64,000 nucleotides of DNA from a virus (IMGVR_UViG_3300034105_002043:1-64000); one strand, 5' to 3'; positions 1 through 28,114 are shown, numbered from the stretch's first letter. Numbers and translations are program-made. The notes: generated by a model not told the origin, from the sequence alone.

Positions 1-317
1 GTTGTACCTCCGCCAACGTAGGTTTTTGTTTCGTCAGTTGTAGCACTTGGCTCTCCTTTTGGTTTAGTGTCTTCACTATCTTTTGTCCCTGATACAACAC
101 TTGTACTATTACCTTGTGGCAAATCATTTTCAATATCCTCTAAAATCAACGTGTTTTTTTTAGGAGGTGTGTTTGGTAAAGGACTTATTGGAATTATAAT
201 TTCAGGTTCGGCTACCTGCGAACTACCATTCTCATAAACAGGAATTTCATAAGTAGGCATCATTTGACTATCATAGTCTGAAACGTACATTTTGGTTAAA
301 TTTGTATCTTGTCGCAT
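1..317 (-). CDS. Hypothetical Pro/Thr/acidic protein, 3' end outside window
   Basis: Open frame MRQDTNLTKMYVSDYDSQ... from ATG at 317 runs off the window edge; read manually. Confidence 0.7.
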   Translation of the reverse strand, partial: MRQDTNLTKMYVSDYDSQMMPTYEIPVYENGSSQVAEPEIIIPISPLPNTPPKKNTLILEDIENDLPQGNSTSVVSGTKDSEDTKPKGEPSATTDETKTYVGGGT

Positions 318-326
318 AATATTTTT

Positions 327-887
327 TTATTTTTTTACTATTACGTCTTCTCTCAACCAAAAAAAGTCTGTTTTTGGAGTAAGAAGTATAGGTGTATCTT
401 CTTTAATTTGTTTAATCGCTTCAGCAGATGGCTTAATTTTAAACCAAACATAAACTTTGCCTTGCGAATTAGCCATTTTTCCCTTGTCTTGAGCAACGTC
501 TGTAACGATTCCTGCATACGTTCCTTTTCGAGTAATTTTACCACCAACTCCATTATTTACAAACCAACCATTATTAACATAAGGTGTTATTCTTGGGTTG
601 ACATTTTCAAGTTTAGTATAAATTTTTTGATTTAACATTTTTAACTTGATTTGAGCAAGAGGCAATTTCAAAATATCTGACAAAGCAGGGTCTATATTTG
701 CTTGTTCGGTAGTAATTGTATCTCCGCTTGGAGTAACAATAATATCTTCTTCCTTATCTTCTTCTTTTTCAACTGTTGCATCAGCAGTATCTAACAAAGG
801 TTTTTTCTTTGTAATTACTACATAAGCAACTACCGCTAAAGCGATAGCCAATCCTGAATATAAGTATAATTTTTTATCGCCGTTCAT
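327..887 (-). CDS. Membrane-anchored protein with bacterial SH3-like domain (paralogue of 4288..4848)
   Basis: N-terminal TM (start more likely MNGDKK); NVNPR...VNNG...W.....WLREDVI pattern typical of SH3b. Confidence 0.6.
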   Translation of the reverse strand: MNGDKKLYLYSGLAIALAVVAYVVITKKKPLLDTADATVEKEEDKEEDIIVTPSGDTITTEQANIDPALSDILKLPLAQIKLKMLNQKIYTKLENVNPRITPYVNNGWFVNNGVGGKITRKGTYAGIVTDVAQDKGKMANSQGKVYVWFKIKPSAEAIKQIKEDTPILLTPKTDFFWLREDVIVKK

Positions 888-891
888 CTTT

Positions 892-1056
892 TTATTTTTT
901 AGCGTTGTCAATTCCTTTAATCACACTATCAAAATCCGCTTTTAGTTGAGGGTCATTTGAAATATCTTTTTTATCTGCTTTTTTGAAAGCAAAATAGAGT
1001 AATCCAATTACTATAATTGAAGTGCCACCTATGATAATTATTTTTTTATTGTCCAT
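892..1056 (-). CDS. Small single-TM protein
   Basis: MDNKKIIIIGGTSIIVIGLLYFAFKK anchor; start reassigned to avoid overlap. Confidence 0.75.
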   Translation of the reverse strand: MDNKKIIIIGGTSIIVIGLLYFAFKKADKKDISNDPQLKADFDSVIKGIDNAKK

Positions 1057-1060
1057 AATT

Positions 1061-1522
1061 TTACTTTTTAAATGCTTTATAAACATAAGCAATACCAACA
1101 ATACCTCCAACAATAGCAACTATACTAATTGTCTTTTTAAAAGCATCGCCTCCTAAAACCGAATTTATGCCACCAAACACACCTGAACTAACATTAGAAA
1201 CAGTATCAAGACCTCCTACTACAATATCACTTGCAGTTCCATATCCCTCTAAAATAGGTGTAAAAACACCCGCTCCCTGAAATGGCGAAAGACCGTTATC
1301 TTTTACATATTTTCTAAAATCTGTATTGAAAGTACGACAATCAAGGTTGCTACTTAAATTTCCTGATTTAGCATAGGCATAATTCCAAATATCTTTTGCA
1401 GTTGGTTTCCCAAAATGCTCTGCTAATCTTTTATGATATGTAACCCAATCTATACAACTCCAAGAAGTATCAATTCCCCATTCATCATAATCAGGTACGG
1501 TGTTCCAATTTATTACTGCCAT
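1061..1522 (-). CDS. Trp-rich protein with C-terminal TM anchor
   Basis: ORF track; TM ISIVAIVGGIVGIAYVYK. Confidence 0.75.
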   Translation of the reverse strand: MAVINWNTVPDYDEWGIDTSWSCIDWVTYHKRLAEHFGKPTAKDIWNYAYAKSGNLSSNLDCRTFNTDFRKYVKDNGLSPFQGAGVFTPILEGYGTASDIVVGGLDTVSNVSSGVFGGINSVLGGDAFKKTISIVAIVGGIVGIAYVYKAFKK

Positions 1523-1560
1523 ATCTTTATTATATTTAGTAAATACAAATTTAATTAAAT

Positions 1561-2022
1561 TTATACAATTTTAGTTACTTTTCCATTAACTTCTGCATAC
1601 CCTAAATCATTTATCAACTTTTCTAAATCTGCTATTTGAGTGTCTAATTCTTTACTTTTTCTGTCACGAAGTAAACTTTGAAGACTTCCTCCTCCAATTC
1701 CCCCTGCTCCAAAAATTCCAACACCACTTGTTACGTTTGGCAATAATGCGAGTTGTCTTCTTTGAGTTTTCAAATCATCAATTTTTATTGCAAGTGCTTT
1801 AGCGTCTGCCATTTTTTGAGCAATTTTTTCAACTTCTTCAGGGGACGTTATAACTGCGCCTGTTGGCGGTACGGTTATTAATGAGTTTGGATTAGCAGTT
1901 GGTAATCCTGAATTTGATGTACCCGTGTCTGTGATAACAGGTTTTTTAGGTCTAAAATAAAAAAAAGCCCCTACACCTAAAACGCCTACTGCTCCAATTA
2001 TTAAAACTCTTTTCGTGTCCAT
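1561..2022 (-). CDS. N-anchored coiled-coil membrane protein (paralogue of 2039..2542)
   Basis: Shared VPPTG..L/I.SP.EVE..A.K.A.AK.LA.KI.DL and LG..EVNG....IV C-terminus. Confidence 0.8.
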   Translation of the reverse strand: MDTKRVLIIGAVGVLGVGAFFYFRPKKPVITDTGTSNSGLPTANPNSLITVPPTGAVITSPEEVEKIAQKMADAKALAIKIDDLKTQRRQLALLPNVTSGVGIFGAGGIGGGSLQSLLRDRKSKELDTQIADLEKLINDLGYAEVNGKVTKIV

Positions 2023-2038
2023 ATTTTTTAATTTAAAA

Positions 2039-2542
2039 TTATACTATTCTGTTTATTGAGCCATTAACTTCCATAAAACCTAACTTACCTATTTGCTCGT
2101 CTAAATTTTTTATTTCTTCTTCTAACCTTTTGATTTCTTGCTCTTTATAAAATTTTAAATTTGCATCTCCGCCAAAACCATAATTTCTAATACCTGAATA
2201 AGTTTCATAATCTCTCAAACTCATAGCGATAACAGAAGTTCTTTTCGTTCTTAAATCTGATATTTTAGTTGCTAAACTTTTTGCTTCAGCAATTTTTTTA
2301 GCCAAATCTTCAACTTCAGCAGGAGTTGACAAAGTAGTCCCTGTTGGAGGTACGCCTGTTGTACCTGTTGTACCTGTTGTGCCTGTTGCACCTGTTGTAC
2401 CTGTTGTACCTGTTGTACCTGTTGTACCTGTTGTACCCGTTGTTCCCGAACCTGATGTTACTGATTTTTTAGGCTTGAAGTAAAAATATGCCCCAACTCC
2501 TAATATAAGCACACCTCCAATTATTATTACTTTCTTGTCCAT
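2039..2542 (-). CDS. N-anchored coiled-coil membrane protein with (GTT)n linker
   Basis: TM, about 10 Gly-Thr-Thr repeats, paralogous C-terminal domain. Confidence 0.8.
   Translation of the reverse strand: MDKKVIIIGGVLILGVGAYFYFKPKKSVTSGSGTTGTTGTTGTTGTTGTTGATGTTGTTGTTGVPPTGTTLSTPAEVEDLAKKIAEAKSLATKISDLRTKRTSVIAMSLRDYETYSGIRNYGFGGDANLKFYKEQEIKRLEEEIKNLDEQIGKLGFMEVNGSINRIV
2355..2446. repeat. 9-bp tandem repeat (cctgttgta)n encoding Gly-Thr-Thr
   Basis: Directly visible tandem array. Confidence 0.9.
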
Positions 2543-2547
2543 ATTTT

Positions 2548-2865
2548 TTATTTTTTAGTAATGAATTTATTATAATCGTTCAATGAAGTTTGAGTTACTT
2601 TCATAACTGCTTTTAATCTTGCCTCTGTTTTATCGCCAAAATCCTCATCATCAACTAATTGTTTCAATGCTCTTTGAAGTATTCCTACCTCAACTCCTTT
2701 CGAGCCTTTTTTCAATACTTTATCATAATCTGCTTTTGCAGGTGGCGTGTTTTGCCCGAAATCAGTTTTTTCTTCAGTTGGTTGCGGAGTTTTCTTAAAG
2801 AATAAATATATTCCTAAAGCAACTAACCCTATTGAAACTAATAATACTTTTTGATTGTCTTTCAT
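2548..2865 (-). CDS. TM protein with peptidoglycan-binding (PGBD-like) domain
   Basis: LKKGSKGVEVGILQRAL...DEDFGDKTE matches PG_binding_1 pattern. Confidence 0.7.
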   Translation of the reverse strand: MKDNQKVLLVSIGLVALGIYLFFKKTPQPTEEKTDFGQNTPPAKADYDKVLKKGSKGVEVGILQRALKQLVDDEDFGDKTEARLKAVMKVTQTSLNDYNKFITKK

Positions 2866-2876
2866 AACTTATTTTT

Positions 2877-3086
2877 TTAAACTGTTGGAACAAATGGTGG
2901 TGTAGCGTTTGGTGGAATATTAGTAGGCGTTTCCATAGGTGGTTCTAAATGACTCCCTGCTTCTGCTTCTGCTATATCCTCATTTTTAAAATTGAAAGTT
3001 AAATTTCCATTTTTAATTTTATTATACAGAAAATATCCCCCCAATCCAAGTAGTATCGTACCAAATATGTAATAGCCTTTTCCCAT
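2877..3086 (-). CDS. Small single-TM protein, Pro-rich tail
   Basis: ORF track; N-terminal TM. Confidence 0.7.
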   Translation of the reverse strand: MGKGYYIFGTILLGLGGYFLYNKIKNGNLTFNFKNEDIAEAEAGSHLEPPMETPTNIPPNATPPFVPTV

Positions 3087-3087
3087 T

Positions 3088-3444
3088 TTACAAATCTTTT
3101 AATGCAATTTGATTCACTCCTTTTGCTTTTAATAACCCCGCTAAAGTAAACGAACCGAATATACCGTCAATACCATCTTGATTATCTCCAAAAGTACCTA
3201 AATTTTGACCATATTTTTCAATAAGGATTCTTTGCATTTCAGCAACTTCAGGGTTTTCAGAACCTTGTTTTAAGACTAAATTTACATCTAACGTACTTGG
3301 TTCAGGCATAGTTTGTTTAGGTATTTGCATAACCTCAACGCCTAAAGGCTTGTTCTTAAATAAGAAGTAAATTAATACTCCTAATCCTAAAACTACTCCA
3401 CCAATAATTAATTGGGTTTTTCTGTCTTTTACATTTACTTGCAT
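3088..3444 (-). CDS. TM protein with PGBD-like domain
   Basis: LKQGSENPEVAEMQRIL...GIDGIFGSFT. Confidence 0.75.
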   Translation of the reverse strand: MQVNVKDRKTQLIIGGVVLGLGVLIYFLFKNKPLGVEVMQIPKQTMPEPSTLDVNLVLKQGSENPEVAEMQRILIEKYGQNLGTFGDNQDGIDGIFGSFTLAGLLKAKGVNQIALKDL

Positions 3445-3445
3445 A

Positions 3446-3778
3446 TTACAAATCTTTTAATTTTATTTCTGTTACGTTTTTTGCTTTCCTTAAAGCAACT
3501 TCTGTCAGCAATCCAAAATCGCCGTCAATACCGTCTTTGTTTACACCCGAATCTCCCAAAATAGCATTATAATCCTTTTTAAGAACTCTTTGTAATTCAG
3601 AAACTTCTGCTCCTTGAGAACCTTTTTTAAGAACCTTTTCCTCATCTAAAGTAGAGGTTTGTAAATCAGCAGGTAGAGGCTTCGGTAAACTATGTAGCCA
3701 TTTACTAACTAAATAAACTCCTAATATAATCCCACCTCCGATTAATAAATACTTTTTTTGTTTTGCGTCTAATGTCAT
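3446..3778 (-). CDS. TM protein with PGBD-like domain
   Basis: LKKGSQGAEVSELQRVL...GIDGDFGLLTE. Confidence 0.75.
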   Translation of the reverse strand: MTLDAKQKKYLLIGGGIILGVYLVSKWLHSLPKPLPADLQTSTLDEEKVLKKGSQGAEVSELQRVLKKDYNAILGDSGVNKDGIDGDFGLLTEVALRKAKNVTEIKLKDL

Positions 3779-3797
3779 AATTTCTATTTTTTATTTT

Positions 3798-4283
3798 TTA
3801 GTATTCAACACACGTTGGCGGACAAGGTGTAGTTATACAAGTGCTTTGCACCCATTTTTTACAAGGTCTGTCTGCAACTTGTGGCGAACTCACAACAGGT
3901 TGAGGTTGTTTAAAAAAACTTGTCACTAAATCCGAATCTTCTTTCGTAGAAATGCCCTGACTTTTATCTCCCTCTTGATTTAAAATCATAATCCAATACG
4001 CTTTAAAAAACTTATCTACATTTGCTCTGCTTAAATCTTTTCCATTAGTTTTAGCATTTTCAAAAAGAGTTTTTAAATCGTTAATTCCTTTTTGTGGGTC
4101 TTGAACTTTTATACCTTTATTTGAGGCAAATGCACTTGACTTATTTACAAGGTCAGTAATTAACTTATCTAATTCTGCATCTGTGTAAGGGGTTGATTGA
4201 AGTTTTTCCTTTTGATTTTTATTATAAAAATAATAAACGAAAACGGCTACCCCAAGTCCTATTAATAAATTTTTATTGTTCAT
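3798..4283 (-). CDS. N-anchored membrane protein with Cys-rich C-terminus
   Basis: TM; CKKWVQSTCITTPCPPTC. Confidence 0.7.
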   Translation of the reverse strand: MNNKNLLIGLGVAVFVYYFYNKNQKEKLQSTPYTDAELDKLITDLVNKSSAFASNKGIKVQDPQKGINDLKTLFENAKTNGKDLSRANVDKFFKAYWIMILNQEGDKSQGISTKEDSDLVTSFFKQPQPVVSSPQVADRPCKKWVQSTCITTPCPPTCVEY

Positions 4284-4287
4284 AACC

Positions 4288-4848
4288 TTATTTTTTATTA
4301 TTCATATTAACAACAACTACGTCTGACCTTACCCAACGTAAAGACGGGTCTTTTGGCTTCATCATATCCCAACTGAAATTCTTTTTAATTTCAAATAGTT
4401 GATTTGAGTTTTCTTCATTTACTGCAAACCATATTTTTTTATCATCTCCTAATTTAGCAGTTACAATTTTACCTATAAATGACTTTTTTTTAGGTATTGT
4501 ACCCGCTATATTATTAAAAATACCATTATTAACTCCCGCACCCATTCTAACTTTTACATTATCAGTAGATGTATAAAATTTCTGACCTATATACTTTTCG
4601 TATTTTTTATTTTTTAATGCTTCGTCTATGCTTTTTTTGTATTCAGCAATCGAAATTTTAACTCCTTTACTTACTCCAACATTGACAGGGTTTCCACTTG
4701 CATTTTCGTAATCGAAATCAACGTTTTCATCATCAATAATTCCGACAGGTCTTGGTTTTTGTTTCTTTTTAGACAAAAAATAAACAGTTGCTAATCCTGC
4801 GACTACCAAACCACCTATTAATACTATTTTTTTTGTTCCTGATTCCAT
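4288..4848 (-). CDS. Membrane-anchored protein with bacterial SH3-like domain
   Basis: TM; DNVKVR...VNNG...IWF...WVRSDVV; carries YENASG motif. Confidence 0.65.
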   Translation of the reverse strand: MESGTKKIVLIGGLVVAGLATVYFLSKKKQKPRPVGIIDDENVDFDYENASGNPVNVGVSKGVKISIAEYKKSIDEALKNKKYEKYIGQKFYTSTDNVKVRMGAGVNNGIFNNIAGTIPKKKSFIGKIVTAKLGDDKKIWFAVNEENSNQLFEIKKNFSWDMMKPKDPSLRWVRSDVVVVNMNNKK

Positions 4849-4850
4849 TT

Positions 4851-5135
4851 TTATCCTTTAATAATTTCAACTTTTGGATTTCCGTCTTTATCTTTTACAT
4901 CTCTACCCCATTTTCTTAACCAAATGTCTTCTCCAAAGACGTGTAACTCATAGCCGTTAAATGTTGTAATATCAACGCCTTTATCAGTTGTAAACTCTTT
5001 CGTTGAACCTCCTAAAGAAGCCGTTCCTGTTCCATCTTTTCTAACTACAACTTTTGCCTTTGGCGGTATTAAAAAAAAGACTAATCCCGTTAAAGCAACA
5101 ACACCACCGATAATTAATACTTTTTTATTAGCCAT
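4851..5135 (-). CDS. Single-TM protein with small beta domain
   Basis: ORF track; N-terminal TM. Confidence 0.7.
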   Translation of the reverse strand: MANKKVLIIGGVVALTGLVFFLIPPKAKVVVRKDGTGTASLGGSTKEFTTDKGVDITTFNGYELHVFGEDIWLRKWGRDVKDKDGNPKVEIIKG

Positions 5136-5146
5136 AAGTCAATAAA

Positions 5147-5890
5147 TTACTCTTTGGTTAAAAGATAGCCCAATATAAAAGCAACGACTATCATTATTTT
5201 AGTATTATCTCCATTTCTTCTTTTTATTTCTGTTAAATTTTCAATAGCATTTGATTTATCATTACTATTAAAAACTTTAAATTCATTAAAAGAAAGAACA
5301 GGTTTACCACCTTGAAATCCTGAAGCATCATAAGGGTTAAATGTTCCTGAAACAATATAACCTTTCAATATTTCGCCTTTTGAAACGCTAACACAAGGAG
5401 GTCTTGCGACAGTTTGCATCATTTGAGATTGAGTTAATTGACCACAAAATCCACTTTGCTTATCAACCAAAGATTCAACTCTAATAATTTCTAATGGTTT
5501 TAGTTTTCCGTCTTTTAATGCCACGTCATATTGATTTTGCAAATCAACTTGGTATGTTTCAACAGGTAAAAATATTACGGTGTTTTTAGGTTGAGGAAGT
5601 TCTTGAACTCCTGATTGCCCCATTCTATTTTCCCATTTGTTCAAAATATTAAATTCTTGAACAACTAAATATGGTTTTTTTTCAACTAAAAAATTATTAG
5701 ACGAATCATATTGAGGCATAGCAATTTTTACATCACTTACCATAGGAGGTAAACTATTTCTATAATCAAGTAAACTTTGAGATAATTGATATTCTCTTGT
5801 TTGTTCAGCCAAAATTTTTTTTTGTTCAGCCAAACTAACTGCTTGTTCTAAATTTTGAGCATCTATACTAACTCCTGCAAAACTTCCCAT
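5147..5890 (-). CDS. C-terminally anchored membrane protein
   Basis: C-terminal IMIVVAFILGYLLTKE, similar to anchor of 6631..7722. Confidence 0.7.
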   Translation of the reverse strand: MGSFAGVSIDAQNLEQAVSLAEQKKILAEQTREYQLSQSLLDYRNSLPPMVSDVKIAMPQYDSSNNFLVEKKPYLVVQEFNILNKWENRMGQSGVQELPQPKNTVIFLPVETYQVDLQNQYDVALKDGKLKPLEIIRVESLVDKQSGFCGQLTQSQMMQTVARPPCVSVSKGEILKGYIVSGTFNPYDASGFQGGKPVLSFNEFKVFNSNDKSNAIENLTEIKRRNGDNTKIMIVVAFILGYLLTKE

Positions 5891-5892
5891 AA

Positions 5893-6618
5893 TTATTCAG
5901 TTTTATTTTTTTTAAATATTGCGTAACCAACTAAAATAGCAAGAACGCCAAACATCACATATTTTAAATTATCAGGTTTTTCAGCAGGTGGAACTATATT
6001 TTGAACCGTATAATCGGGTTTATTCATACCCTCTCCTGAACTACCATTAGCACTTAATAAGTCGTCTGTCGTATCGTAAGGCAAATTATTTAATGCAGTA
6101 TATAACTTTTTAGTTTCTTCGGCAGACATTGTATATCCTTTTCTGTAATGCTTCAAAACTCTTTTCAAAGTGCTTAAAGGATTTACAATAGTATTAATTA
6201 CCAATTTTCTATCCTTTAAGTCTTTAAGAGTATTATTACCATAATACAAGTCGTTACCGTCAGTAGCCAACATTGATATTGTAAAATCAAATCGGGCAAT
6301 AGTGTCCATTGGATTTTTAGCAAATATTTTTACTAAATCGTAAGTATTACCCTTGTAGGTAACTTTCATACCATTATCGCTTTCCCAAATAGTTTTTGCG
6401 CCTTTAGACTGCAAATATTTTTTTGCTTTATCGAATTCCGTTATGTTTGGGAAGAAAATATCGCAATCAGACTTTAAGGGTTTTTCCGTGAAATAATCTC
6501 TTAAAACACCTCCTGCAATCCAACAGTTAATTCCGTTCTTTTTTAATTCTTGTAGAATTAAATTATTGAAGTAAACAAGGGTCAAAGTTTTATTTACATT
6601 TATAGTTTTATTTGCCAT
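5893..6618 (-). CDS. Nucleotidyltransferase (CCA/poly(A) polymerase head-like) with C-terminal TM anchor
   Basis: WIAGGVLRD, SDCDIFF (DxD) and RFDFTISM motifs; C-terminal TM. Confidence 0.75.
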   Translation of the reverse strand: MANKTINVNKTLTLVYFNNLILQELKKNGINCWIAGGVLRDYFTEKPLKSDCDIFFPNITEFDKAKKYLQSKGAKTIWESDNGMKVTYKGNTYDLVKIFAKNPMDTIARFDFTISMLATDGNDLYYGNNTLKDLKDRKLVINTIVNPLSTLKRVLKHYRKGYTMSAEETKKLYTALNNLPYDTTDDLLSANGSSGEGMNKPDYTVQNIVPPAEKPDNLKYVMFGVLAILVGYAIFKKNKTE

Positions 6619-6630
6619 AATTTAGATTTA

Positions 6631-7722
6631 TTAAGTAGTTGGTGTATCTTTTCCGAATAAAACGTAGCCTAATAAAAAAGCCCCTACAATCATCAAAATA
6701 TTTTTGTTATTATCTTTAACAGGAACAACTACACCGCTATTAGTCGGAATATTTGTTGGATTTTTTTTTGTTAAGTATTCAACAGGAATTTCTAATTGAC
6801 CTGATTGTCCCATTCCACTAACAAGAAGAACATCGTAATATATCGAAGTTTCAGGCATACCATTAATAGATTTTCCTGTGATACTCTTTTGTCTAATTAA
6901 ATTACCCGTTACTTCCATTCCAATCGGAAGTGTTTCATAATTAGCAGTTTGTTCATATTGTAACCTACCTGCACCACCTAATTCATAAAGAGGTCTTACA
7001 TTTGTATATGATTTTATAAACTGAAAAGGCTTACTAATTGTATAAGTTACATTTGTTTCTAATACTTGACCTGATTGCGGTACAGAACGAATTGTAGGGT
7101 CAAAAGGAGGTATTATCTTTACAGGAGGCATATCATATACAGGTTGTGGCTTCATATTAGCACCGTATAAAATTCCTGTTGAAACAGTAACCGCTAAATT
7201 ATCATCAACTTTTCTTAAATAATCTTTAGGAATTGAAAATTCTTTTTGATTTTTTAAATCTCCTAAATTGCTAAAAAATCCAACTGATTTAGGGGTGTTT
7301 TGGTCAGGCACAACATAATTAGGATTTTGGATAATTGCATTGTTTCCGTCAAAACGAAGCACGTTCACTACATTTCCTTTTGAGAAAGTACCTACTTGTG
7401 GCTCTGAATTTACCTTTACAGGTTGCGGAAATAGTGCTTCCCACTTAATATTTTTTAAACCCCCTGTTCCATCGCCATCAAAATTATAAAATTCTTTAGT
7501 AGGTAAGGCAACTTCTTTTTTGATACCTGTATTTAATAATTGTGCTAAATTAATATTAGACCAAAAACCCTGTACTTTGTAATCATAAATAAATTCATAC
7601 TTCCCTAATTTCTCAAGAACACCAATTGGGTTTTCGTTAATTATTGAAACCGCCTTTATAGGTCTAATCATTGATATACTGCCTACTTCATTTTCTAAAA
7701 CTAAATCTTTATAATTTTGCAT
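6631..7722 (-). CDS. C-anchored protein with two SH3-like beta modules
   Basis: KYEFIYDY...FSKGNVV...FSIPKDYLRKVDD shared with 9528, 22334 and 22828; C-terminal TM. Confidence 0.6.
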   Translation of the reverse strand: MQNYKDLVLENEVGSISMIRPIKAVSIINENPIGVLEKLGKYEFIYDYKVQGFWSNINLAQLLNTGIKKEVALPTKEFYNFDGDGTGGLKNIKWEALFPQPVKVNSEPQVGTFSKGNVVNVLRFDGNNAIIQNPNYVVPDQNTPKSVGFFSNLGDLKNQKEFSIPKDYLRKVDDNLAVTVSTGILYGANMKPQPVYDMPPVKIIPPFDPTIRSVPQSGQVLETNVTYTISKPFQFIKSYTNVRPLYELGGAGRLQYEQTANYETLPIGMEVTGNLIRQKSITGKSINGMPETSIYYDVLLVSGMGQSGQLEIPVEYLTKKNPTNIPTNSGVVVPVKDNNKNILMIVGAFLLGYVLFGKDTPTT

Positions 7723-20911: not shown

Positions 20912-20921
20912 ATTAATTTAA

Positions 20922-21188: not shown

Positions 21189-21190
21189 AA

Positions 21191-21328
21191 TTATTTTGCT
21201 TTATAAACAGTTAATCCTGTTTTAGTTTTTGATGCTACATACGTTTTACCATTGTAAGTAAATGATGCTGATTTGTTCTTTTTGGCTTCCAACATTGCTT
21301 TGAAATACCCGTTTACCGCTTTTGCCAT
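21191..21328 (-). CDS. 45-aa basic protein, possible nucleic-acid-binding core protein (not in ORF track)
   Basis: MAKAVNGYFKAMLEAKKNKSASFTYNGKTYVASKTKTGLTVYKAK. Confidence 0.75.
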   Translation of the reverse strand: MAKAVNGYFKAMLEAKKNKSASFTYNGKTYVASKTKTGLTVYKAK

Positions 21329-21339
21329 AATTTCTGTTT

Positions 21340-21555
21340 TTAATTGTTTTTGTTTTTTAAATAATTTTTTCCATTATAATAAAAAGTAGAAACCCCAATA
21401 ATAATCAAACTTAATTGTATAAATTTTGGTAATGTTTTACCTTTTAATCCTGCATAAACACAAATTGGAGCAATAACAAAAATGTCAATAATTCTAATTG
21501 CTTGGCTCTTTTGAAATTCTTCTACTGTTTCTGTTCTAATTTCGTTTATTTTCAT
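21340..21555 (-). CDS. Two-TM small protein
   Basis: KSQAIRIIDIFVIAP...IIIGVSTFYYNGKNY. Confidence 0.7.
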   Translation of the reverse strand: MKINEIRTETVEEFQKSQAIRIIDIFVIAPICVYAGLKGKTLPKFIQLSLIIIGVSTFYYNGKNYLKNKNN

Positions 21556-21575
21556 ATTTTTAAAAGTTTTTACTT

Positions 21576-21758
21576 TTATTTTTTAAAAAATTTCAAAACT
21601 CTTTGAACGTTTTTTCGGTCATAAGGCACTTTGCCGTTTAACCAATCTTGTCTTGCTTCGCAACCGCAATCTTCTGTTACTGCTTCAACTACCGCTTTAA
21701 TTCCTGTAAATTTAGTAATTTTTGCAACAGTATCGCCTAATCCTCTGCTTTTTTCCAT
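21576..21758 (-). CDS. Conserved small phage protein (GLGDT...CGC motif)
   Basis: SRGLGDTVAKITKFTGIK...DCGCEARQDWLN. Confidence 0.75.
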   Translation of the reverse strand: MEKSRGLGDTVAKITKFTGIKAVVEAVTEDCGCEARQDWLNGKVPYDRKNVQRVLKFFKK

Positions 21759-21785
21759 ACCAAATTGTTGTTATTTTACTTGGTT

Positions 21786-21989
21786 TTATTTTGTGTAATC
21801 TTTATTGATTAAATCATACGTCATATAAGCAACCGTACCTGCGCCTAATACAACGCCTATTGCCATACTTCCTAATACAGTTACCAAAGCCCCTTTACCT
21901 AAACTATATCCTTTAGAATAAGAGAAAATAGCAAGACTTAAAGGCACAACCAATAAAACTACTGCTCCATTATTTGAATCCTTTGCCAT
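21786..21989 (-). CDS. Two-TM small protein
   Basis: ORF track. Confidence 0.7.
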   Translation of the reverse strand: MAKDSNNGAVVLLVVPLSLAIFSYSKGYSLGKGALVTVLGSMAIGVVLGAGTVAYMTYDLINKDYTK

Positions 21990-22000
21990 ATACTTAATTA

Positions 22001-22327
22001 TTAAGTCGTTGAGTATTTTTTACCCATTGCTTTTTTAACATTGTATTTTACTTCTTCTACGTCATCTACCAAATTAAGGAAATCATCGTTTGGTTTTTTC
22101 TCTTCGTTCAATTTAGCAATTGCTTTTCTGTAATATGTAATTCCATATATTGAAAATGCAATCAAAAGCCCGAATACAAGCAAACTTTTAAAATCCATTG
22201 GTTTTTGCGACCCCATACTTTCAAATACATCATCGCCACCACCTGACGGTGCAACGGGTGCGGGTGCTACGGGTGCTACTGCTACGGGAGCGGGTGCTAC
22301 GGGTGCTACTGCTACTTCTGTTTCCAT
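22001..22327 (-). CDS. TM protein with (VAP)n N-terminus
   Basis: Ala/Pro/Val repeat, central TM. Confidence 0.75.
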   Translation of the reverse strand: METEVAVAPVAPAPVAVAPVAPAPVAPSGGGDDVFESMGSQKPMDFKSLLVFGLLIAFSIYGITYYRKAIAKLNEEKKPNDDFLNLVDDVEEVKYNVKKAMGKKYSTT

Positions 22328-22333
22328 AATAAT

Positions 22334-22822
22334 TTATTTATTAAATTTTTTATATGCTAAATATGCAATTACCAATCCTCCTAAAATTAGTAAATTAGTT
22401 TTGTTTTTTTCTAAAAATGTTTGAGGAGCGACATCTTTATTATCAGGATAATCTGCCCCTAATCCCTGTTGTTCAGAATTTATAACTTTCACACTTTTAT
22501 CTAATGTAACTTTAGAATCATCAGGAACTAATTCTAATTCTTTTTGGAAATAAGAGTTGTTTTTAACATCTCTAATGTTACTCAAAAATATAGGATATTT
22601 GTCAGTATCTTTTTTTAAAGAAATTTGAAAACTATTAGGAAAATCTTCATTTTCTCCACCATTAAATTTTAATGGCTCTGCCTCCACAATAGTACCTTTA
22701 GGTATTGTATAAAGAAGTTTGTCTTTAATTTCTTTAGTTCCATCTCCGCCTGTTAATTCAGGTGCAGGAACAGTTTTATAACTATACTGACTTGCTTCAA
22801 TTAATAATTTATACTTTGCCAT
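22334..22822 (-). CDS. C-anchored protein with SH3-like module
   Basis: Shares QTFLEKNKTNLLI...YLAYKKFNK anchor with 22828. Confidence 0.75.
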   Translation of the reverse strand: MAKYKLLIEASQYSYKTVPAPELTGGDGTKEIKDKLLYTIPKGTIVEAEPLKFNGGENEDFPNSFQISLKKDTDKYPIFLSNIRDVKNNSYFQKELELVPDDSKVTLDKSVKVINSEQQGLGADYPDNKDVAPQTFLEKNKTNLLILGGLVIAYLAYKKFNK

Positions 22823-22827
22823 AATTT

Positions 22828-23187
22828 CTATTTATTAAATTTTTTATATGCTAAATATCCTAAAACCAATAAGCCAACTATTAGTAAATTGGTTTTATTT
22901 TTTTCTAAAAATGTTTGTTCTCTTACTAACATTTCAGGAACTTGAAATACCCCATTATAATAAACTAATTTATTATCTTCTGTAAAATTATTCGGAGTAA
23001 TTATTTCAACATTATATGCTCTTGCTTCGGGATTTACACCTGCATTTGTAGGCACTAATTTACCCTCAAAAACATCTCCTTTTTTAAATTTGTGTTTTAA
23101 TTTTATTGAGCGAACATCGTGACGGCTTTCGTCACTTGGTGTTGTGCCAATTGCCTCAAAATCTTCTTTAAATATATATTTTGCCAT
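22828..23187 (-). CDS. C-anchored protein with SH3-like module
   Basis: KYIFKEDF...FKKGDVFEG...FQVP. Confidence 0.75.
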   Translation of the reverse strand: MAKYIFKEDFEAIGTTPSDESRHDVRSIKLKHKFKKGDVFEGKLVPTNAGVNPEARAYNVEIITPNNFTEDNKLVYYNGVFQVPEMLVREQTFLEKNKTNLLIVGLLVLGYLAYKKFNK

Positions 23188-23192
23188 AATTC

Positions 23193-23621
23193 CTATTTTT
23201 TATTTTTAAATGCTCTAACAATTAAAAATAGTCCTGCTAACATTCCTATTCCTGCATAAATAATTTTATGGTCTTGTAAATGCTGAACAAATTTATTTTT
23301 ACTTGACTCTACTGCAACGGGTCTATTATCTTTAGGTTTTTTTCCTGAATTAATAACAACTTCGTCAAGAACAATATTATCGTCTAATAATTTTATTTTT
23401 TTACCTTGAAGTTCTTTAGCCTTAAAAAATTGAGGCTTGTACCCAACGTATGATATTTTAAATTCTGAATCAGGTGTAATTGAATTATCTTCTATAACAA
23501 AATTTCCGTCCAAGTCTGCTTCGTCTGCCATTTTATTGGCAAATTCTCCTGATACAATAGTGACATTTGCTAAACCCATAGGCAACCCGTCAATATCTAA
23601 AACTTGTCCAAATATCTTCAT
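23193..23621 (-). CDS. CarboxypepD_reg-like (SusC N-terminal type) domain protein with C-terminal TM
   Basis: GQVLD.DG.P...ANVTI...DLDGNF.I...ISYVGY...LDEVVI. Confidence 0.8.
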   Translation of the reverse strand: MKIFGQVLDIDGLPMGLANVTIVSGEFANKMADEADLDGNFVIEDNSITPDSEFKISYVGYKPQFFKAKELQGKKIKLLDDNIVLDEVVINSGKKPKDNRPVAVESSKNKFVQHLQDHKIIYAGIGMLAGLFLIVRAFKNKK

Positions 23622-23806
23622 TATGCTTTTCCTCCTGTTATTCTTTTAATCGTGTAATAATTAACTATTGCGCCTAATGTAAAAGACACAATGCCTACTA
23701 CAACAAATATTGTAGATAAATGCTGATGTGTTTTAGCACTTGCATCTTTCTTATTTTGCTCATCAGTTTGTGCGCCTGTTTGACTACTTTGAACTGCTCC
23801 TACCAT
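23621..23806 (-). CDS. Single-TM protein
   Basis: ORF track. Confidence 0.7.
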   Translation of the reverse strand: MVGAVQSSQTGAQTDEQNKKDASAKTHQHLSTIFVVVGIVSFTLGAIVNYYTIKRITGGKA

Positions 23807-24407
23807 AATAATAATATAATGAAATTCCTGCTATTATTGACAATATCCCTAATGCAATATAATTTTTGTATGCTTTTACTGCTAAACCAAAACTTCCGTC
23901 ATTTAACCATTCTTTAGGTAGTTTCTCTAACATTGTTTTTTTAACTTCCCAAACTCTTAATTTTCCATCTTTTACTTGGCGGAAAGCAGGGTTTGCATTG
24001 TATATTTTTTCTGCACTTAAACCACCTCCCTGAATAATCCAATCATCGGGCTTACCAATTGCAGGTGGGAAAAATACCGCAAAATAAGTGTCAATATATG
24101 TTTTATATTTTCCTTTGTAAAGGTTAAAATATTTCTCTACAAAATCTAACTGCTTAACTGCCGACATTTTTTGTAATTCCTCTTTAGTTGTTCCTAAAGT
24201 TTTTCTTGCACTTGCACCAAACTGAATTAAACCAACGTACCCCAAAGAGTTTGTAATAGACGGACTAAATGTACCTGCCGTTTCAAAGTGCATAATAGCC
24301 ATTAACCAATTAGGGTCAACGCCTATTCTTTTCGATACTTCTTTTACCTTTTCTACAAAAGGTGTCCTGATTGAAGCAGGTACTTTATTTTCGTATATTA
24401 ATGCCAT
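23784..24407 (-). CDS. Lytic transglycosylase (lysozyme-like) with C-terminal TM, putative virion entry enzyme
   Basis: WLMAIMHFET catalytic Glu, GYVGLIQF, QLDFVEKYF. Confidence 0.8.
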   Translation of the reverse strand: MALIYENKVPASIRTPFVEKVKEVSKRIGVDPNWLMAIMHFETAGTFSPSITNSLGYVGLIQFGASARKTLGTTKEELQKMSAVKQLDFVEKYFNLYKGKYKTYIDTYFAVFFPPAIGKPDDWIIQGGGLSAEKIYNANPAFRQVKDGKLRVWEVKKTMLEKLPKEWLNDGSFGLAVKAYKNYIALGILSIIAGISLYYYYGRSSSK

Positions 24408-24701
24408 TTACCACAATATTTTATCCGCATACCAACCATTTGTTCCCGTTTTTTTACGGTCTTTTTCGTGACGAATCTTATATAATCTTCTTCTTTCCTT
24501 TGCATATCCTTTCGGATAATAGCCTTTTTTTTCTTTTTCCAAATAGGTAGGGTAATCATTCATACCCAAAGCCCCTATTGAAGCGACTTTTTTACCGTTT
24601 TTAAAAACATCAATTTTTTTAAGCGGGTTAGTTGAGGGTTTTATTTCAACTCTCAACTTATCTGCTTGTGCTTTTGAATATGGTAAAATCTTGTAAGCCA
24701 T
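24408..24701 (-). CDS. Basic protein resembling DUF5754
   Basis: PST...KK.DV...IG..G..DY....RR..Y..RH....G.....ILW pattern, recalled not searched. Confidence 0.6.
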   Translation of the reverse strand: MAYKILPYSKAQADKLRVEIKPSTNPLKKIDVFKNGKKVASIGALGMNDYPTYLEKEKKGYYPKGYAKERRRLYKIRHEKDRKKTGTNGWYADKILW

Positions 24702-24718
24702 TAATTAAATATTTTTAA

Positions 24719-24940
24719 TTAATTACCTACCGTACTTGCTATTGCTCTATACCCCTCTTTACAATCCCTTGTATCAGACATATAAATTTGACCTCTTTCA
24801 TTTCTGCAATAATACTTTTTTTTATCCTTTCCCATCGCATTAAAAAATCCGTCTGAATTTCTCTTTGGTTTTTGTACATAAGCAACAATTGCAATCACAC
24901 CAAGTAAGGCTAAACCTCCAAATATATATTCTGTTTTCAT
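24719..24940 (-). CDS. TM protein, NSxGF family, 2-Cys tail
   Basis: YIFGGLALLG...PKRNSDGFFNAMG. Confidence 0.8.
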   Translation of the reverse strand: MKTEYIFGGLALLGVIAIVAYVQKPKRNSDGFFNAMGKDKKKYYCRNERGQIYMSDTRDCKEGYRAIASTVGN

Positions 24941-24956
24941 ATTTTTTATTTATTTA

Positions 24957-25634
24957 TTAATTATTTTCATCAAACACATAAGTTTGTTTTGTTTCGTCAT
25001 ACCTAATTTTCTTTAACTCTTCTTCGGTAAAATTTCTTCTGAAAAAACCTACTATGGTCATACTTCCGCTTTTTTTACCTACCGTAAGGTATCTTTTTAA
25101 TTTTTTTACCTTATCTCCCTCGCCTGTTTTTGTTGAGTCTGTATTCCCCTCAATAGTTTCGCAATAATTTGTTTTTTCGTCTAAAATTTGTACAATTATT
25201 CCTGTATGTCCTCCTTGTGTTCTTTTAGCACAAAAAATATCTCCTACTTGTAATTTTCCACTTTTAAAAGCAATATACTTTTTATCTCCTTTTTTATTTA
25301 AGTTTTGTACATTAATTAAATTTTGTAATGCACTTCCACCTATATTTTTTGACAACCACTCTTTATCAAAAGAAAATAGTTGCATCAATACTAATTTAAC
25401 ATAATAAGCACACCACGCTTGACTTGACTTCCAACCAACTGCTTTCATCATTGCTTCAAAAGCACTATCAACAAATCCTACATTCGCTCTTCCTTTGACT
25501 TTTTTTTCTAATTGAGATGCAAAGCCTGTATTTTCCAAAAAACCTAATAGTTTAGCAAATACGAGAGGTATATTTGGAAATAAATTGGCGGTGCTATTTC
25601 CACCATTAGGATTGTTTTCATTTTCTTCTCCCAT
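24957..25634 (-). CDS. CHAP-domain peptidoglycan hydrolase
   Basis: AWCAYYV, GDIF, GHTGII, TIEGNT. Confidence 0.85.
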   Translation of the reverse strand: MGEENENNPNGGNSTANLFPNIPLVFAKLLGFLENTGFASQLEKKVKGRANVGFVDSAFEAMMKAVGWKSSQAWCAYYVKLVLMQLFSFDKEWLSKNIGGSALQNLINVQNLNKKGDKKYIAFKSGKLQVGDIFCAKRTQGGHTGIIVQILDEKTNYCETIEGNTDSTKTGEGDKVKKLKRYLTVGKKSGSMTIVGFFRRNFTEEELKKIRYDETKQTYVFDENN

Positions 25635-25639
25635 AACTT

Positions 25640-25822
25640 TTACTTTATATTTGGGTCATTAAAAACATCATAATCCTCAACTATTTCCTTAACATCATTT
25701 TTGTAAATTATCGAAATCTTTTTTTCATTGGCTTTTCTCGTAAGATACATAGTCAAAGCAAAACCGCCAACACCAACTGCTACTAAACCCGTAATTAATA
25801 ATATTTTTTTACCGTTAGTCAT
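25640..25822 (-). CDS. Single-TM protein (paralogue of 26699..26863)
   Basis: KIL...VG.GGF.L..YLTR. Confidence 0.75.
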   Translation of the reverse strand: MTNGKKILLITGLVAVGVGGFALTMYLTRKANEKKISIIYKNDVKEIVEDYDVFNDPNIK

Positions 25823-25836
25823 ATTTTGTAAATAAT

Positions 25837-25971
25837 TTATTTAGCCCCACAACCACAACCACCTGTTGCGCTGAAAAAACCCTCTGAATTTTTCTTTGGT
25901 TTATTGTAATAAGCAATTAATGCTATTACCCCTACAATTGCTAAACCCCCTATGATGTATTGCTTATTCAT
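25837..25971 (-). CDS. 44-aa TM peptide, NSxGF family (not in ORF track)
   Basis: MNKQYIIGGLAIVGVIALIAYYNKPKKNSEGFFSATGGCGCGAK. Confidence 0.8.
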   Translation of the reverse strand: MNKQYIIGGLAIVGVIALIAYYNKPKKNSEGFFSATGGCGCGAK

Positions 25972-25976
25972 ATCTT

Positions 25977-26693
25977 TTATTTTTTAACACTTAAATTATT
26001 TTTAAACCACAAATCTAAAAATCCATTTACACCCAACATTTTTAATAAATAACCTCTGCTCTCTAAAGGTATTGTTTTGTTATTAAGTAATTGCTCTGTT
26101 GTTAATTTACCTTTAACTTTGTTTCTCATAGAATAATAACCTGCATTATAAGAAACCATTACTTTATTTATACTTGCAACATCGCCGTCTTTGAACGCTT
26201 CTAAAAGCCATCTTAAAACCGCAGTACCTATTGCTATGCTGAATTCAGAATTATTTTGTAATGCCCTGCGTATTTCACTTTTTACCGCCGAACTCGGCAA
26301 GGTATTAGCGTTGAAATTTTTACTTGACGGAATCGCTTTATTAAAAAACGCTTTTGCTTTTGCAGATAACGGAGAGTCAACCATTACTTGCCACTTAACA
26401 AGTATTTCCCAAACTGAATTTGGAGTAACCTGCATAAGACCTGTTGCATCATATTGATTTGGAGGAGCATTTTTACCACCGCTTTCAGTTGCTATAAAAC
26501 TTGCAATAATTGAATTATCAATTTCAAATTCAGTCCCCCAAGTGTTAATGAAACCTAAATAATCTTTAATTATTTTATTCAATAAATTAGTATTAGCCAA
26601 AGCAACGCTTTTGTCAGAATACTTATAACTTCCCTGCACAAAACTTCTATTAACATCAGGTACTTTAACCGCTACTGTTGTGAACTTTCCCAT
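25977..26693 (-). CDS. Soluble lytic transglycosylase (SLT domain)
   Basis: IATESGG, ATGLMQV, SYNAG motifs. Confidence 0.85.
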   Translation of the reverse strand: MGKFTTVAVKVPDVNRSFVQGSYKYSDKSVALANTNLLNKIIKDYLGFINTWGTEFEIDNSIIASFIATESGGKNAPPNQYDATGLMQVTPNSVWEILVKWQVMVDSPLSAKAKAFFNKAIPSSKNFNANTLPSSAVKSEIRRALQNNSEFSIAIGTAVLRWLLEAFKDGDVASINKVMVSYNAGYYSMRNKVKGKLTTEQLLNNKTIPLESRGYLLKMLGVNGFLDLWFKNNLSVKK

Positions 26694-26698
26694 AATTA

Positions 26699-26863
26699 TT
26701 AGTCTAAAGGTTCTTCATTAGGAGGAGTATCATACGTTTGTATGATAACACTTCCACCTCTAATTTTTCTTACATTACGAGTAAGGTATTTCGCAAGGAA
26801 AAATCCTCCGATTGCAACACCAACAACGCCTACTGCTATTAAAATTTTTTGTGCTTTGGTCAT
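26699..26863 (-). CDS. 54-aa single-TM protein (not in ORF track)
   Basis: MTKAQKILIAVGVVGVAIGGFFLAKYLTRNVRK... Confidence 0.75.
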   Translation of the reverse strand: MTKAQKILIAVGVVGVAIGGFFLAKYLTRNVRKIRGGSVIIQTYDTPPNEEPLD

Positions 26864-27358
26864 TTATCGTTTTTTTCCAAAATAATTTATTGCTCCTGCT
26901 GAAAAGACTAATAAAAGACCTCCTGCAATTAAGCCACCCCAACCTATTCCTGATTTTTTTTTAGGGTCAGTTTTTGTGTCTTTTTCAAGTGCTTCTTTTT
27001 CTTCTAATTCTTTCTTCTCTAATTCTTCTTTTTCTTTTGCTTCTTGGGCTTGTTTTTCGGCTCTTTGTCTTGCCTCTGCGTCAGCCTTATTTTTAGCAAT
27101 TTGACGGTTTTTTGCTTCCGCCTCTCTCTTTTTAGCAACAAGGTCAGACAAATCTTCAATTAAATCATCTTGGGTGTCCGTAATGAATTCAACAATCTCG
27201 TCTAATTTCTCTTGCGATTCCTCTGTTGGGTTTTCATTGTGTTCCTCTCTTACGACTGCTAATTTTTGGTTTAGTTTACCTAATCCGTCTAATCTTTTAG
27301 CCATTGAAGCGGGTACTTTGTTGTCCAACGCTTTTAATAATCCATTAATTGTTTCCAT
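26864..27358 (-). CDS. Coiled-coil protein with C-terminal TM
   Basis: ORF track. Confidence 0.75.
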   Translation of the reverse strand: METINGLLKALDNKVPASMAKRLDGLGKLNQKLAVVREEHNENPTEESQEKLDEIVEFITDTQDDLIEDLSDLVAKKREAEAKNRQIAKNKADAEARQRAEKQAQEAKEKEELEKKELEEKEALEKDTKTDPKKKSGIGWGGLIAGGLLLVFSAGAINYFGKKR

Positions 27359-27392
27359 AGTGTTTTTTATAAAATAAAGTTAATTTTAACCA

Positions 27393-27400
27393 CAAATATA
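27393..27400 (-). promoter_or_regulatory. Bacteroidota-type -7 element (TATATTTG) heading the structural gene block
   Basis: TAnnTTTG in intergenic gap; TTTATTATATTTG identical to the site at 56677. Confidence 0.6.
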
Positions 27401-27454
27401 ATAAAATTTTAATAAGCAAGTCATTAATGCCTTGTTTTTATAAAAATTTTGTTG

Positions 27455-28114
27455 TTAAGTTTCTAATAATCTGTTTGCTATCAATTTTTGTCCGCTTGGT
27501 GTCGGGTGTATTCCGTCAGCAGTCATACTACTTGGAATGTTAATTTTTTCTACAATAGTTGCTCTTTTTATTGTTGTTGGTATTGAATTTTGAAAGTCAA
27601 TATATCTGTTTTTTAATTTAACCATTCCTGCTTTTGTTGGAACATAAGAGGTTGGTTTTAATTTATTTTCGTCCATAAACTTTTCAGCATCGTACCCAAC
27701 AATGACATAAGGCTCTGCGCCATTCTTAATCGAGAGGTCAACCATATCCTGAACATTCTGTAATGCTTTGTCTTTCGTAACTGCGCTAAACATATCATTA
27801 ACACCACCATATATGTATATTCTATCGTACTTGTTTGTTTTCAACTTTTCTGTAAGATTAGATAATAACCAATCTGTTCTTTTACCGCCCTTTGCTAAAA
27901 CATCAATTTTAATTCCTTTCGGTTCTAATTCTTTTTTTAACAGGTTGGGGTAAGTAAAAGTTACAGGTGTTCCGTTGTAATCAATAGCCGTTATAGAATC
28001 CCCGACAAAAAGCATACTTTTTGGTAACTTTTTGCCGAAGAATTTTTTTACAGTTAGATAAATTAATGCTAATCCAATAGCGGTTGTTACACCGTAAAAC
28101 AATTTTTTGTTCAT
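27455..28114 (-). CDS. SGNH/GDSL hydrolase with N-terminal TM
   Basis: FVGDSIT, GGVND, DGIHP blocks. Confidence 0.88.
   Translation of the reverse strand: MNKKLFYGVTTAIGLALIYLTVKKFFGKKLPKSMLFVGDSITAIDYNGTPVTFTYPNLLKKELEPKGIKIDVLAKGGKRTDWLLSNLTEKLKTNKYDRIYIYGGVNDMFSAVTKDKALQNVQDMVDLSIKNGAEPYVIVGYDAEKFMDENKLKPTSYVPTKAGMVKLKNRYIDFQNSIPTTIKRATIVEKINIPSSMTADGIHPTPSGQKLIANRLLET

Follow-up and report, generated by a model that had tools for sequence, protein, structure and literature searches.

Among viruses of prokaryotes, large genomes are regarded as a property of tailed phages, and the described bacterial and archaeal viruses with a jelly-roll capsid and an inner membrane have, to our knowledge, genomes of ~7–31 kb, none as large as in the lineage considered here. 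This lineage is represented by the window, a stretch of 64,000 nucleotides constituting bases 1–64000 of the 76,746-bp IMG/VR virus record IMGVR_UViG_3300034105_002043, classed as linear, and its central genes are a packaging ATPase (17042..17857) and a candidate major capsid protein, MCP (14060..14761). Double jelly-roll phages obtained by genome mining have genomes of 7–18 kb (PMC5894146), and tailless viruses of ANME-1, of ~10 kb (PMC9894754). The respective descriptions give 16–19 kb for Simuloviridae (PMC12642351) and ~30 kb for Sphaerolipoviridae, with a linear genome, inverted terminal repeats and two capsid proteins (PMC12643093). In a literature search, which was not exhaustive, we found the present lineage undescribed.

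We propose that the record belongs to a large tailless, internal-membrane virus lineage of Bacteroidota, closest in kind to Helvetiavirae (realm Singelaviria) and 4–8 times larger, and estimate the probability of this reading at roughly two thirds. The original prediction, made from the window, had suggested a jumbo-scale Varidnaviria-like lineage; a large tailless virus of the membrane type is supported here, while the realm has changed, as single jelly-roll viruses were moved to Singelaviria in 2025 (PMC12714852). For comparative analysis we used six genomes, that is, the record itself, the 132,486-bp contig JBBAJS010000009.1 (G001:C9 below), and IMG/VR records of 100, 102, 85, and 84 kb. 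The genes described below within 327..28114 are encoded on the minus strand.

Packaging ATPase and jelly-roll proteins

The gene at 17042..17857 encodes a single-domain FtsK-HerA protein of 271 aa, in which the Walker A (GRKGCGKT) and Walker B (LLLIED) motifs are read directly, and residues G18, K19, E112, and D113 are invariant across 65 homologues. The family comprises 466 clusters at 50% identity, mostly of 260–330 aa, in a scan of 1.84 billion representatives. The profile built from the 65 sequences matched HerA (7e-5) and B204 of STIV2 (2e-4, residues 7–175) among PDB sequences in hmmsearch; single-sequence PDB searches with the ATPase, with the capsid candidate, and with the conserved 365-aa protein g43 (see below) gave nothing useful.

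The AlphaFold2 (AF2) model of the ATPase has a predicted local distance difference test score (pLDDT) of 96.1. Comparison of this model with the PDB by Foldseek yielded the STIV2 B204 packaging NTPase as the top match (2.5e-9), followed by HerA, RadA, and Zot. VIA-align against 48,161 representative chains also placed B204 first (Z-score 18.0, root-mean-square deviation, rmsd, 2.6, 185 out of 204 residues), the runners-up being DndH-C (16.2), HerA (15.9), VirB4 (15.2), TrwB (13.2), and FtsK (10.9), and a large terminase subunit (TerL) is absent among the best 50 matches listed by either structure search. Matches in BFVD are mainly A32-like ATPases of giant viruses, a corticovirus NTPase, sphaerolipovirus PH1, and the mavirus ATPase. 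At the profile level (hhalign), the family aligns with the ATPase of Thermus phage P23-77 at 91% (E 1e-6, 150 columns), and with P9 of PRD1 and P9 of PM2, at 14% and 30%, respectively, the latter two being aligned only around Walker A. The product of 17042..17857 is a B204/A32-type viral packaging ATPase and belongs to the FtsK-HerA superfamily.

Related IMG/VR loci were collected with an alignment of 15 ATPase sequences and with the capsid protein itself; no loci were found when two distant ATPase homologues were used as queries. A homologue of the capsid candidate is located 300–3098 bp downstream of the ATPase gene (median 456 bp) in all 46 loci with enough downstream sequence. In the window this gene and a 41-aa single-pass membrane peptide (14815..14940, from ORF (open reading frame) and transmembrane (TM) segment prediction) form their own transcription unit with its own promoter region, bounded by a strong terminator at 15125–15101 and by a hairpin with a T-run just past the stop codon, below 14060.

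The candidate MCP has 233 aa, with a jelly-roll core (residues 53–200) between an N-terminal arm (1–52) and a C-terminal arm (201–233), and ~1984 homologues, the best 120 of them at 82–98% identity. It was folded by AF2 on a 42-sequence alignment that included distant copies, down to 30% identity, from the IMG/VR loci. In the model residues 53–200 are folded into a sandwich that is all-beta apart from one short helix (pLDDT ~90, block means 80–96), and residues 13–52 and 202–230 are unstructured. VIA-align was run both over all representatives and over the best 1000 chains from Foldseek, and the matches are jelly rolls, including the carbohydrate-binding module of AlgX (Z 6.8), the coat protein of grapevine fanleaf virus (6.4), the PR772 penton protein P31 (6.0), phiCjT23 (5.7), the MCP of PBCV-1 (5.7), picornavirus VP3 (5.5), the MCP of FLiP (5.3), PM2 P1 (5.0), and PRD1 P31 (4.9). 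Collagen-like and tail proteins retrieved by Foldseek from BFVD with this model (TM-score 0.14–0.37, long rmsd) were disregarded. As judged from the model, the core of the 14060..14761 product is a single jelly roll and not an HK97 fold, which establishes the fold class but not the kinship.

A second jelly-roll paralogue, of 149–223 aa, is present in all five relatives, in the region missing from the record. In G001:C9 it has 154 aa (G001:C9:37282–37746). In the relatives the paralogue adjoins an LRAT/NlpC-like protein with a TM anchor and has the TIDPYQ motif in common with the capsid candidate, the BLASTP similarity between the two being 1e-11 over 82 residues. Moreover, a 397-aa protein of the 102-kb relative IMGVR_UViG_3300002835_000070 (L139:17225–18415) consists of two complete capsid cores in tandem, matching at 5e-36 and 1e-33. 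This fusion is seen in one relative only, and a search for longer or fused homologues produced only one, a 466-aa protein on a 1.4-kb contig. Some loci also contain tandem or nearby duplicates of the capsid gene, e.g., L029:9276–9974 with 10001–10699, and L019:6784–7434 (69% and 40% identity to the candidate of the record). On the evidence of these sequence comparisons, the lineage appears to have two conserved single jelly-roll proteins differing in size, with duplication and fusion apparently ongoing.

The gene order, that is, the ATPase, a tiny membrane ORF, the capsid gene, and a run of small membrane proteins, is also observed in the GenBank annotations of PRD1, PM2, and P23-77. The run located after the capsid gene (12089..13965) encodes g33 (143 aa), g32 (218 aa), g31, g30 (100 aa), and g29 (71 aa), which have C-terminal TM anchors and occupy the position of the membrane proteins following the MCP gene in these three viruses. 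Immediately upstream of the ATPase gene are a 38-aa TM peptide (17859..17975) and g43 (17975..19072), the latter having an acidic N-terminal and a basic C-terminal tail, found in all six genomes and in 109 loci, and having no Pfam, PHROG, or PDB match. By position only, both are candidate packaging-vertex partners.

TM segments, predicted by a Kyte-Doolittle hydropathy scan, are present in 42 out of 67 ORFs in 1..28114 (31 N-anchored and 11 C-anchored), compared to 6 out of 51 ORFs located elsewhere in it, and many TM proteins of this block share a common stereotyped N-terminal anchor and fall into paralogous groups. The A32/P9-type ATPase, the beta-rich 233-aa protein with a possible single jelly roll (one sandwich in the AF2 core, Z 5–6.8), and the ~50 small TM proteins of the original prediction all hold, the count of the latter being close to ours. 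The presence of only one jelly-roll gene, on the contrary, turned out to be an effect of truncation.

Genome extent, relatives and host

The record has a coding density of 97%, a guanine-plus-cytosine content of 31–33% along its entire length, and ~118 ORFs, almost all on the minus strand; no tRNA genes were found in it, and its left end truncates an ORF (3..317, open end). When species-representative genomes were scanned, a capsid gene of 97% identity was detected on G001:C9, a contig of a Sediminibacterium metagenome-assembled genome (MAG), which is collinear with the entire record from ~53.65 kb to ~122.8 kb. To the left of the collinear part this contig has 19 kb in which the genes are on the same strand and a 34.5-kb arm of opposite-strand genes, and to the right, 9 kb with three tRNA genes (Pro, Gln, Leu) just inside the end.

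The left extension is retained in all five relatives. It contains RecT, more membrane proteins, variable proteins of 620–1450 aa, and sulfotransferase and APS-kinase-like genes, and proteins of 839–939 aa are found beyond the left end of the record in the relatives together with the second jelly-roll paralogue. As the extension is conserved in all five, it is missing from the record rather than absent from the virus. The CheckV estimate of 100% completeness for the record was not trusted, since the identical value is assigned to the collinear 84–102-kb records. The 76.7-kb record is a fragment of a genome of probably 100–132 kb, and an earlier view of a complete genome of ~64–77 kb has to be abandoned; the statement that the 64-kb window includes the structural module is correct for the right-hand part of the module, while the relatives continue past the cut left end.

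The left tip of G001:C9 has the structure T6(GGGAATTTCGT)4, followed by ~40 further bases (L133:1–90), and this sequence returns as the reverse complement ~100 bases from the right end (L131:11800–11987). The terminal inverted repeat comprises 85 aligned bases with a score of 127, compared to at most 34 in 200 internal controls, and a further inverted copy of the array of the 11-mer GGGAATTTCGT is located at the right tip. As inverted repeats at both ends cannot be produced by circular permutation, this suggests that the genome of the 132,486-bp relative is linear, nearly complete, and terminated by inverted repeats, and that genomes of the lineage are linear and have 100–130 kb.

Translation starts were analyzed in the 25 nt upstream of the starts in the six genomes. 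Shine-Dalgarno motifs are rarer there, at 5% compared to a background of 10–12% (ranges, 2–8% upstream of the starts and 9–12% in random sequence), and an A-rich stretch is present in all six genomes, with 66–77% A at positions –13 to –10 in the record. Depletion of Shine-Dalgarno motifs together with an A-rich upstream stretch is the known pattern of translation starts in Bacteroidota. Besides obviously mis-binned short contigs, the relatives are binned in MAGs of Sediminibacterium, Flavobacteriales, and Bacteroidetes, and a bacterial host is in keeping with the presence of peptidoglycan hydrolases, DNA methyltransferases, RecT, and an HNH endonuclease. This is probably a virus of freshwater Bacteroidota, and the group is ecologically common, as indicated by ~2000 public homologues of the capsid candidate.

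Comparison with known viruses and alternative explanations

Helvetiavirae have two major capsid proteins, each of them a single vertical jelly roll. Among these viruses (Halopanivirales, with Matshushitaviridae including P23-77, Sphaerolipoviridae, and Simuloviridae), the similarity covers the packaging ATPase, homologous at the profile level to that of P23-77 and with PH1 of Sphaerolipoviridae among its best BFVD matches, the presence of candidate capsid-type proteins with a single jelly roll, in two paralogous sizes in the relatives, many virion-type membrane proteins, and, compared to P23-77, the order of the ATPase, a small ORF, capsid gene(s), and small membrane proteins. The 132-kb relative is linear with inverted terminal repeats, as reported for Sphaerolipoviridae (PMC12643093). 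There are also differences. The genome, truncated in the record, exceeds 77 kb and reaches 132 kb in the relative, compared to 16–31 kb, and thus falls outside the size range of these viruses; the hosts are Bacteroidota, not Thermus or haloarchaea; capsid sequence similarity to VP16/VP17 of P23-77 is not detectable; the two jelly-roll genes are not neighbors but ~28 kb apart; the present lineage also has giant polyvalent proteins and modules for glycosylation and sulfation.

In STIV and STIV2 (Turriviridae) B204, and in A32/P9 ATPases generally, the ATPase is of the same size class, has a single domain, and is encoded beside the capsid gene. However, identity to STIV2 B204 is ~17%, the C-terminal helical region (residues ~217–271) is an addition outside B204, and the STIV/STIV2 and PRD1–adenovirus lineages have double jelly-roll capsids and genomes of 10–18 kb. 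With PRD1 and PM2 the locus shares the synteny described above, with Tectiviridae and Corticoviridae, membrane-associated transglycosylase-type enzymes and, presumably, an inner membrane, and with Tectiviridae, the inverted terminal repeats of a linear genome, as seen in the 132-kb relative. In contrast, PRD1 and PM2 have two jelly rolls in the capsid gene and ATPase profiles matching only around Walker A, the present genome is 5–13 times larger than those of Tectiviridae and Corticoviridae, and no protein-primed polymerase was recognized in it. The double jelly roll of Bamfordvirae is not observed either: the protein in the capsid position has one jelly roll, and the two-core fusion occurs in one relative only.

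For identification of tailed-phage and conjugative genes, Pfam and/or PHROGs were used to scan ~80 of the ORFs in the record, among them all those of at least 250 aa. Terminase, portal, HK97 capsid, and tail families had no match among them, in agreement with the original prediction, and no TerL, portal, HK97, or tail family was found in the extra region of G001:C9; in particular, matches to TerL, portal, or capsid families are lacking for all ORFs of at least 400 aa, both in the record and in the 132-kb relative. Six-frame searches with hidden Markov models (HMMs) Terminase_6N, Phage_capsid, and Phage_portal gave nothing at E <= 1 in the record, in three 85–102-kb relatives, and in G001:C9; as a positive control, all three HMMs detected an ordinary tailed prophage, unrelated to the present virus, at G001:C29:8949–14409, on another contig of the same MAG. 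No match to the ATPase or to the capsid candidate was found in 50,697 GenBank phage records.

Some observations weigh against a tailless membrane virus, and several of them would fit a very divergent tailed phage (Caudoviricetes), with hallmark genes escaping the profiles, the ATPase having another job, and the jelly-roll protein serving as decoration or cement. Gene content is the basis for the proposed capsid role, membrane, and tailless shape. That TerL, portal, and HK97 were not seen is a negative result of HMM searches, which very divergent forms may escape, and crAss-like phages formerly looked equally bare; moreover, ORFs of 156, 173, and 245 aa, located beyond the window, were covered by the six-frame searches and not by whole libraries, and many short ORFs also fell outside the library scans. 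The best jelly-roll match of the capsid candidate, Z 6.8 to a carbohydrate-binding module, is below the tool's noise guide of 8, tailed-phage cement or decoration proteins of like fold are among the matches (Pam1, Z 5.3; KHP40, 5.2), and hhalign comparison of the capsid profile with P23-77 VP16/VP17 and PRD1 P31 revealed no similarity. VirB4 and HerA are only 2–3 Z units below B204. Among the scanned ORFs no replication polymerase, including the protein-primed type, was recognized. A genome size of 100–130 kb is typical of tailed phages, the scale of 100–132 kb together with giant virion-type polyvalent proteins would fit such a phage, and the public Atlas clusters of the neighboring gene 17975..19072 are automatically labeled Uroviricota; apparently, pipelines file these contigs as tailed phages. 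Domain-level or weak PHROG matches point in the same direction and were rejected: PHROG 196 “baseplate hub” on 23784..24407 covers the lytic domain only, “tail fiber” PHROGs on 2039..2542 fall on a low-complexity stretch of the TGTTGTTG repeat, and PHROG 2666 “terminase large subunit” on the ATPase is weak (1.8e-5), the nuclease half being lacking and TerL being absent among the best structural matches listed. We consider a tailed phage unlikely, given that the six-frame HMMs are empty here yet detect a normal prophage in the same MAG, the ATPase has 271 aa and no nuclease domain, and the synteny of the ATPase, capsid, and membrane-protein genes, together with 42 TM proteins, is foreign to tailed phages.

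A somewhat less probable alternative retains a tailless membrane virus and makes the 233-aa protein a penton or a minor protein, the real shell being an undetected double jelly roll of a Bamfordvirae-like (Tectiliviricetes-like) type. Single jelly-roll pentons are indeed among the structural matches (PR772 P31, Z 6.0, and PRD1 P31, 4.9), listed together with PM2 P1 (5.0) and phiCjT23 (5.7), and one relative has a two-jelly-roll fusion of the capsid family, but this fusion is confined to a single genome, and in the six-genome core we see no conserved soluble beta-rich protein of 270–500 aa, the double jelly-roll size: g43 is largely disordered or helical, g99 is helical, and g72/g73 are a CobT/CobS-like pair. 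Moreover, the 233-aa gene is in the MCP position after the ATPase gene, forms a strong transcription unit of its own, and is conserved more than any other gene, and the ATPase profile aligns far better with P23-77, from the single jelly-roll lineage, than with PRD1 or PM2. A non-viral mobile element, conjugative or otherwise engaged in membrane transport, with polyvalent proteins and an FtsK/VirB4-like ATPase, seems very improbable. ART-PolyVal, DUF2958, and zeta-toxin polyvalent proteins do occur on conjugative elements too, and VirB4 and TrwB are structurally related to the ATPase; on the other hand, no relaxase, VirB4-sized ATPase, or other family of type IV secretion systems was found in any Pfam or PHROG scan of the record, the best match of the ATPase is B204, and several features speak for a virus: the endolysin and the holin-like genes, an operon of the capsid type with a jelly-roll protein, the location of nearly all genes on a single strand, and the inverted terminal repeats of a linear relative.

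The outcomes named at the outset as contrary to a tailless membrane virus did not materialize: TerL, portal, and HK97 genes were seen neither in the 76.7-kb record nor in the collinear 84–132-kb relatives, the modeled fold of the 14060..14761 product is a single jelly roll, and the ATPase, unlike the conjugative ones single-domain and of 271 aa, stands closer to B204 than to VirB4 and TrwB.

Proposed particle, remaining genes and implications

In the proposed tailless membrane virus, the window would constitute the right-hand part of the morphogenesis module and the downstream genes of a large double-stranded DNA virus, whose particle would be tailless and icosahedral, with an internal protein-rich lipid membrane, to which the TM-rich block and the PAP2 and GDSL lipase genes point indirectly. 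The shell would be formed by the jelly-roll protein encoded at 14060..14761, joined in complete genomes by the 154-aa paralogue as a second capsid or vertex protein, and the inner membrane would be populated by ~40 single-pass proteins. The ATPase with its small membrane partners, and perhaps with g43, may pump the linear genome through a single specialized vertex. The cell wall would be opened during entry by the membrane-anchored enzymes acting on it, the progeny would be released by the M15 endolysin and the holin-like proteins, and PAP2, the GDSL lipase, and, in the relatives, the LRAT-like enzyme could adjust lipids.

The lysis cassette, already noticed in the original prediction, is inserted between the ATPase and capsid genes (15131..16927) and comprises the M15 endolysin (15845..16312; Peptidase_M15_3, 1.6e-20; PHROG 894 endolysin, 2.7e-39), two holin-like proteins with two predicted TM segments each beside it (16317..16927), and two further small proteins; it is absent from relatives with the capsid gene ~300–450 bp after the ATPase gene. 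The cell-wall enzyme block (23193..26693) encodes the 97-aa core protein g59 (24408..24701) and membrane-anchored and soluble enzymes, namely g56 (CarboxypepD_reg-like with a TM segment), g58 (23784..24407), a lytic domain with a TM segment (PHROG 196, positions 382–523 only, 2.1e-31), CHAP (24957..25634, 2.5e-6), and SLT (25977..26693, 8.4e-12). Lipid enzymes are represented by a PAP2-family lipid phosphatase (19924..20568; PF01569, 2.3e-13) and a GDSL-type lipase/acylhydrolase (27455..28114; PF13472, 6.6e-12). A glucosaminidase gene is at 66190..66765 of the record.

The left part of the window (327..5135) contains an array of paralogous single-pass membrane proteins with N-terminal anchors, read in the sequences, and variable ectodomains; BLAST groups them as g1/g11, g4/g5, and g6/g8/g9, and the weak match of g9 to PG_binding_1 (0.039) is a hint only. 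The 261-aa product of 7734..8519 contains the HExxH motif (HEFSH, read in the sequence) and is a candidate zinc protease; Pfam and PHROG scans gave no family match for it. The adjoining gene, within 7734..8856, encodes a 111-aa C-anchored membrane protein present in five of the six genomes.

Genes present in all six genomes are those of the HExxH protein, the TM proteins g29, g30/g32, and g33, the capsid candidate, the ATPase, g43, PAP2, g59, a CobT/CobS-like pair (41855..44860), polyvalent proteins, two glycosyltransferases, and a 280-aa helical protein. The pair consists of a MoxR/CobS-like AAA+ ATPase (470 aa) and its DUF7192 partner (529 aa). The protein encoded at 44860..46539 has 559 aa and includes a perfect (GQ)n repeat ~200 residues long. 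Giant proteins of 1731, 2368, 2281, and 769 aa are encoded at 28119..56657 and contain DUF2958, DUF5661, GNAT, and ART-PolyVal domains; they are followed by a zeta-toxin kinase. Polyvalent proteins of this kind are thought to enter the host along with the DNA. A sugar-modification block (GT1, GT2, a methyltransferase, a PhyH dioxygenase, a PglD-like acetyltransferase, a DegT aminotransferase, and an RgpF-like protein) occupies 57598..64000 and continues beyond the window; genes for a sulfotransferase, an APS-kinase-like protein, and a cytidylyltransferase are additionally present in the relatives. Two neighboring N6/N4 DNA methyltransferase genes are located at 72607..74062 of the record.

New here are the fragment status of the record, the 132,486-bp relative ending in inverted terminal repeats, the second jelly-roll paralogue, the tandem fusion, and the Bacteroidota-type translation signals. 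The chances seem to us evenly balanced that these data describe a widespread Bacteroidota lineage with linear 100–130-kb genomes ending in inverted repeats and a membrane-containing tailless capsid of single jelly-roll proteins, which would be an independent route to large genomes among non-tailed prokaryotic viruses and, in the duplication and fusion of its jelly-roll genes, a living example of the origin of the double jelly roll. If true, this would remove the assumed size limit of the jelly-roll, inner-membrane architecture outside the giant viruses of eukaryotes, being 4–8 times above it, and would demonstrate that contigs of this kind are assigned to tailed phages by automatic classification. 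Moreover, single, duplicated, and fused jelly-roll genes would then coexist in one lineage, which is relevant to the debate on how double jelly-roll capsids originated.

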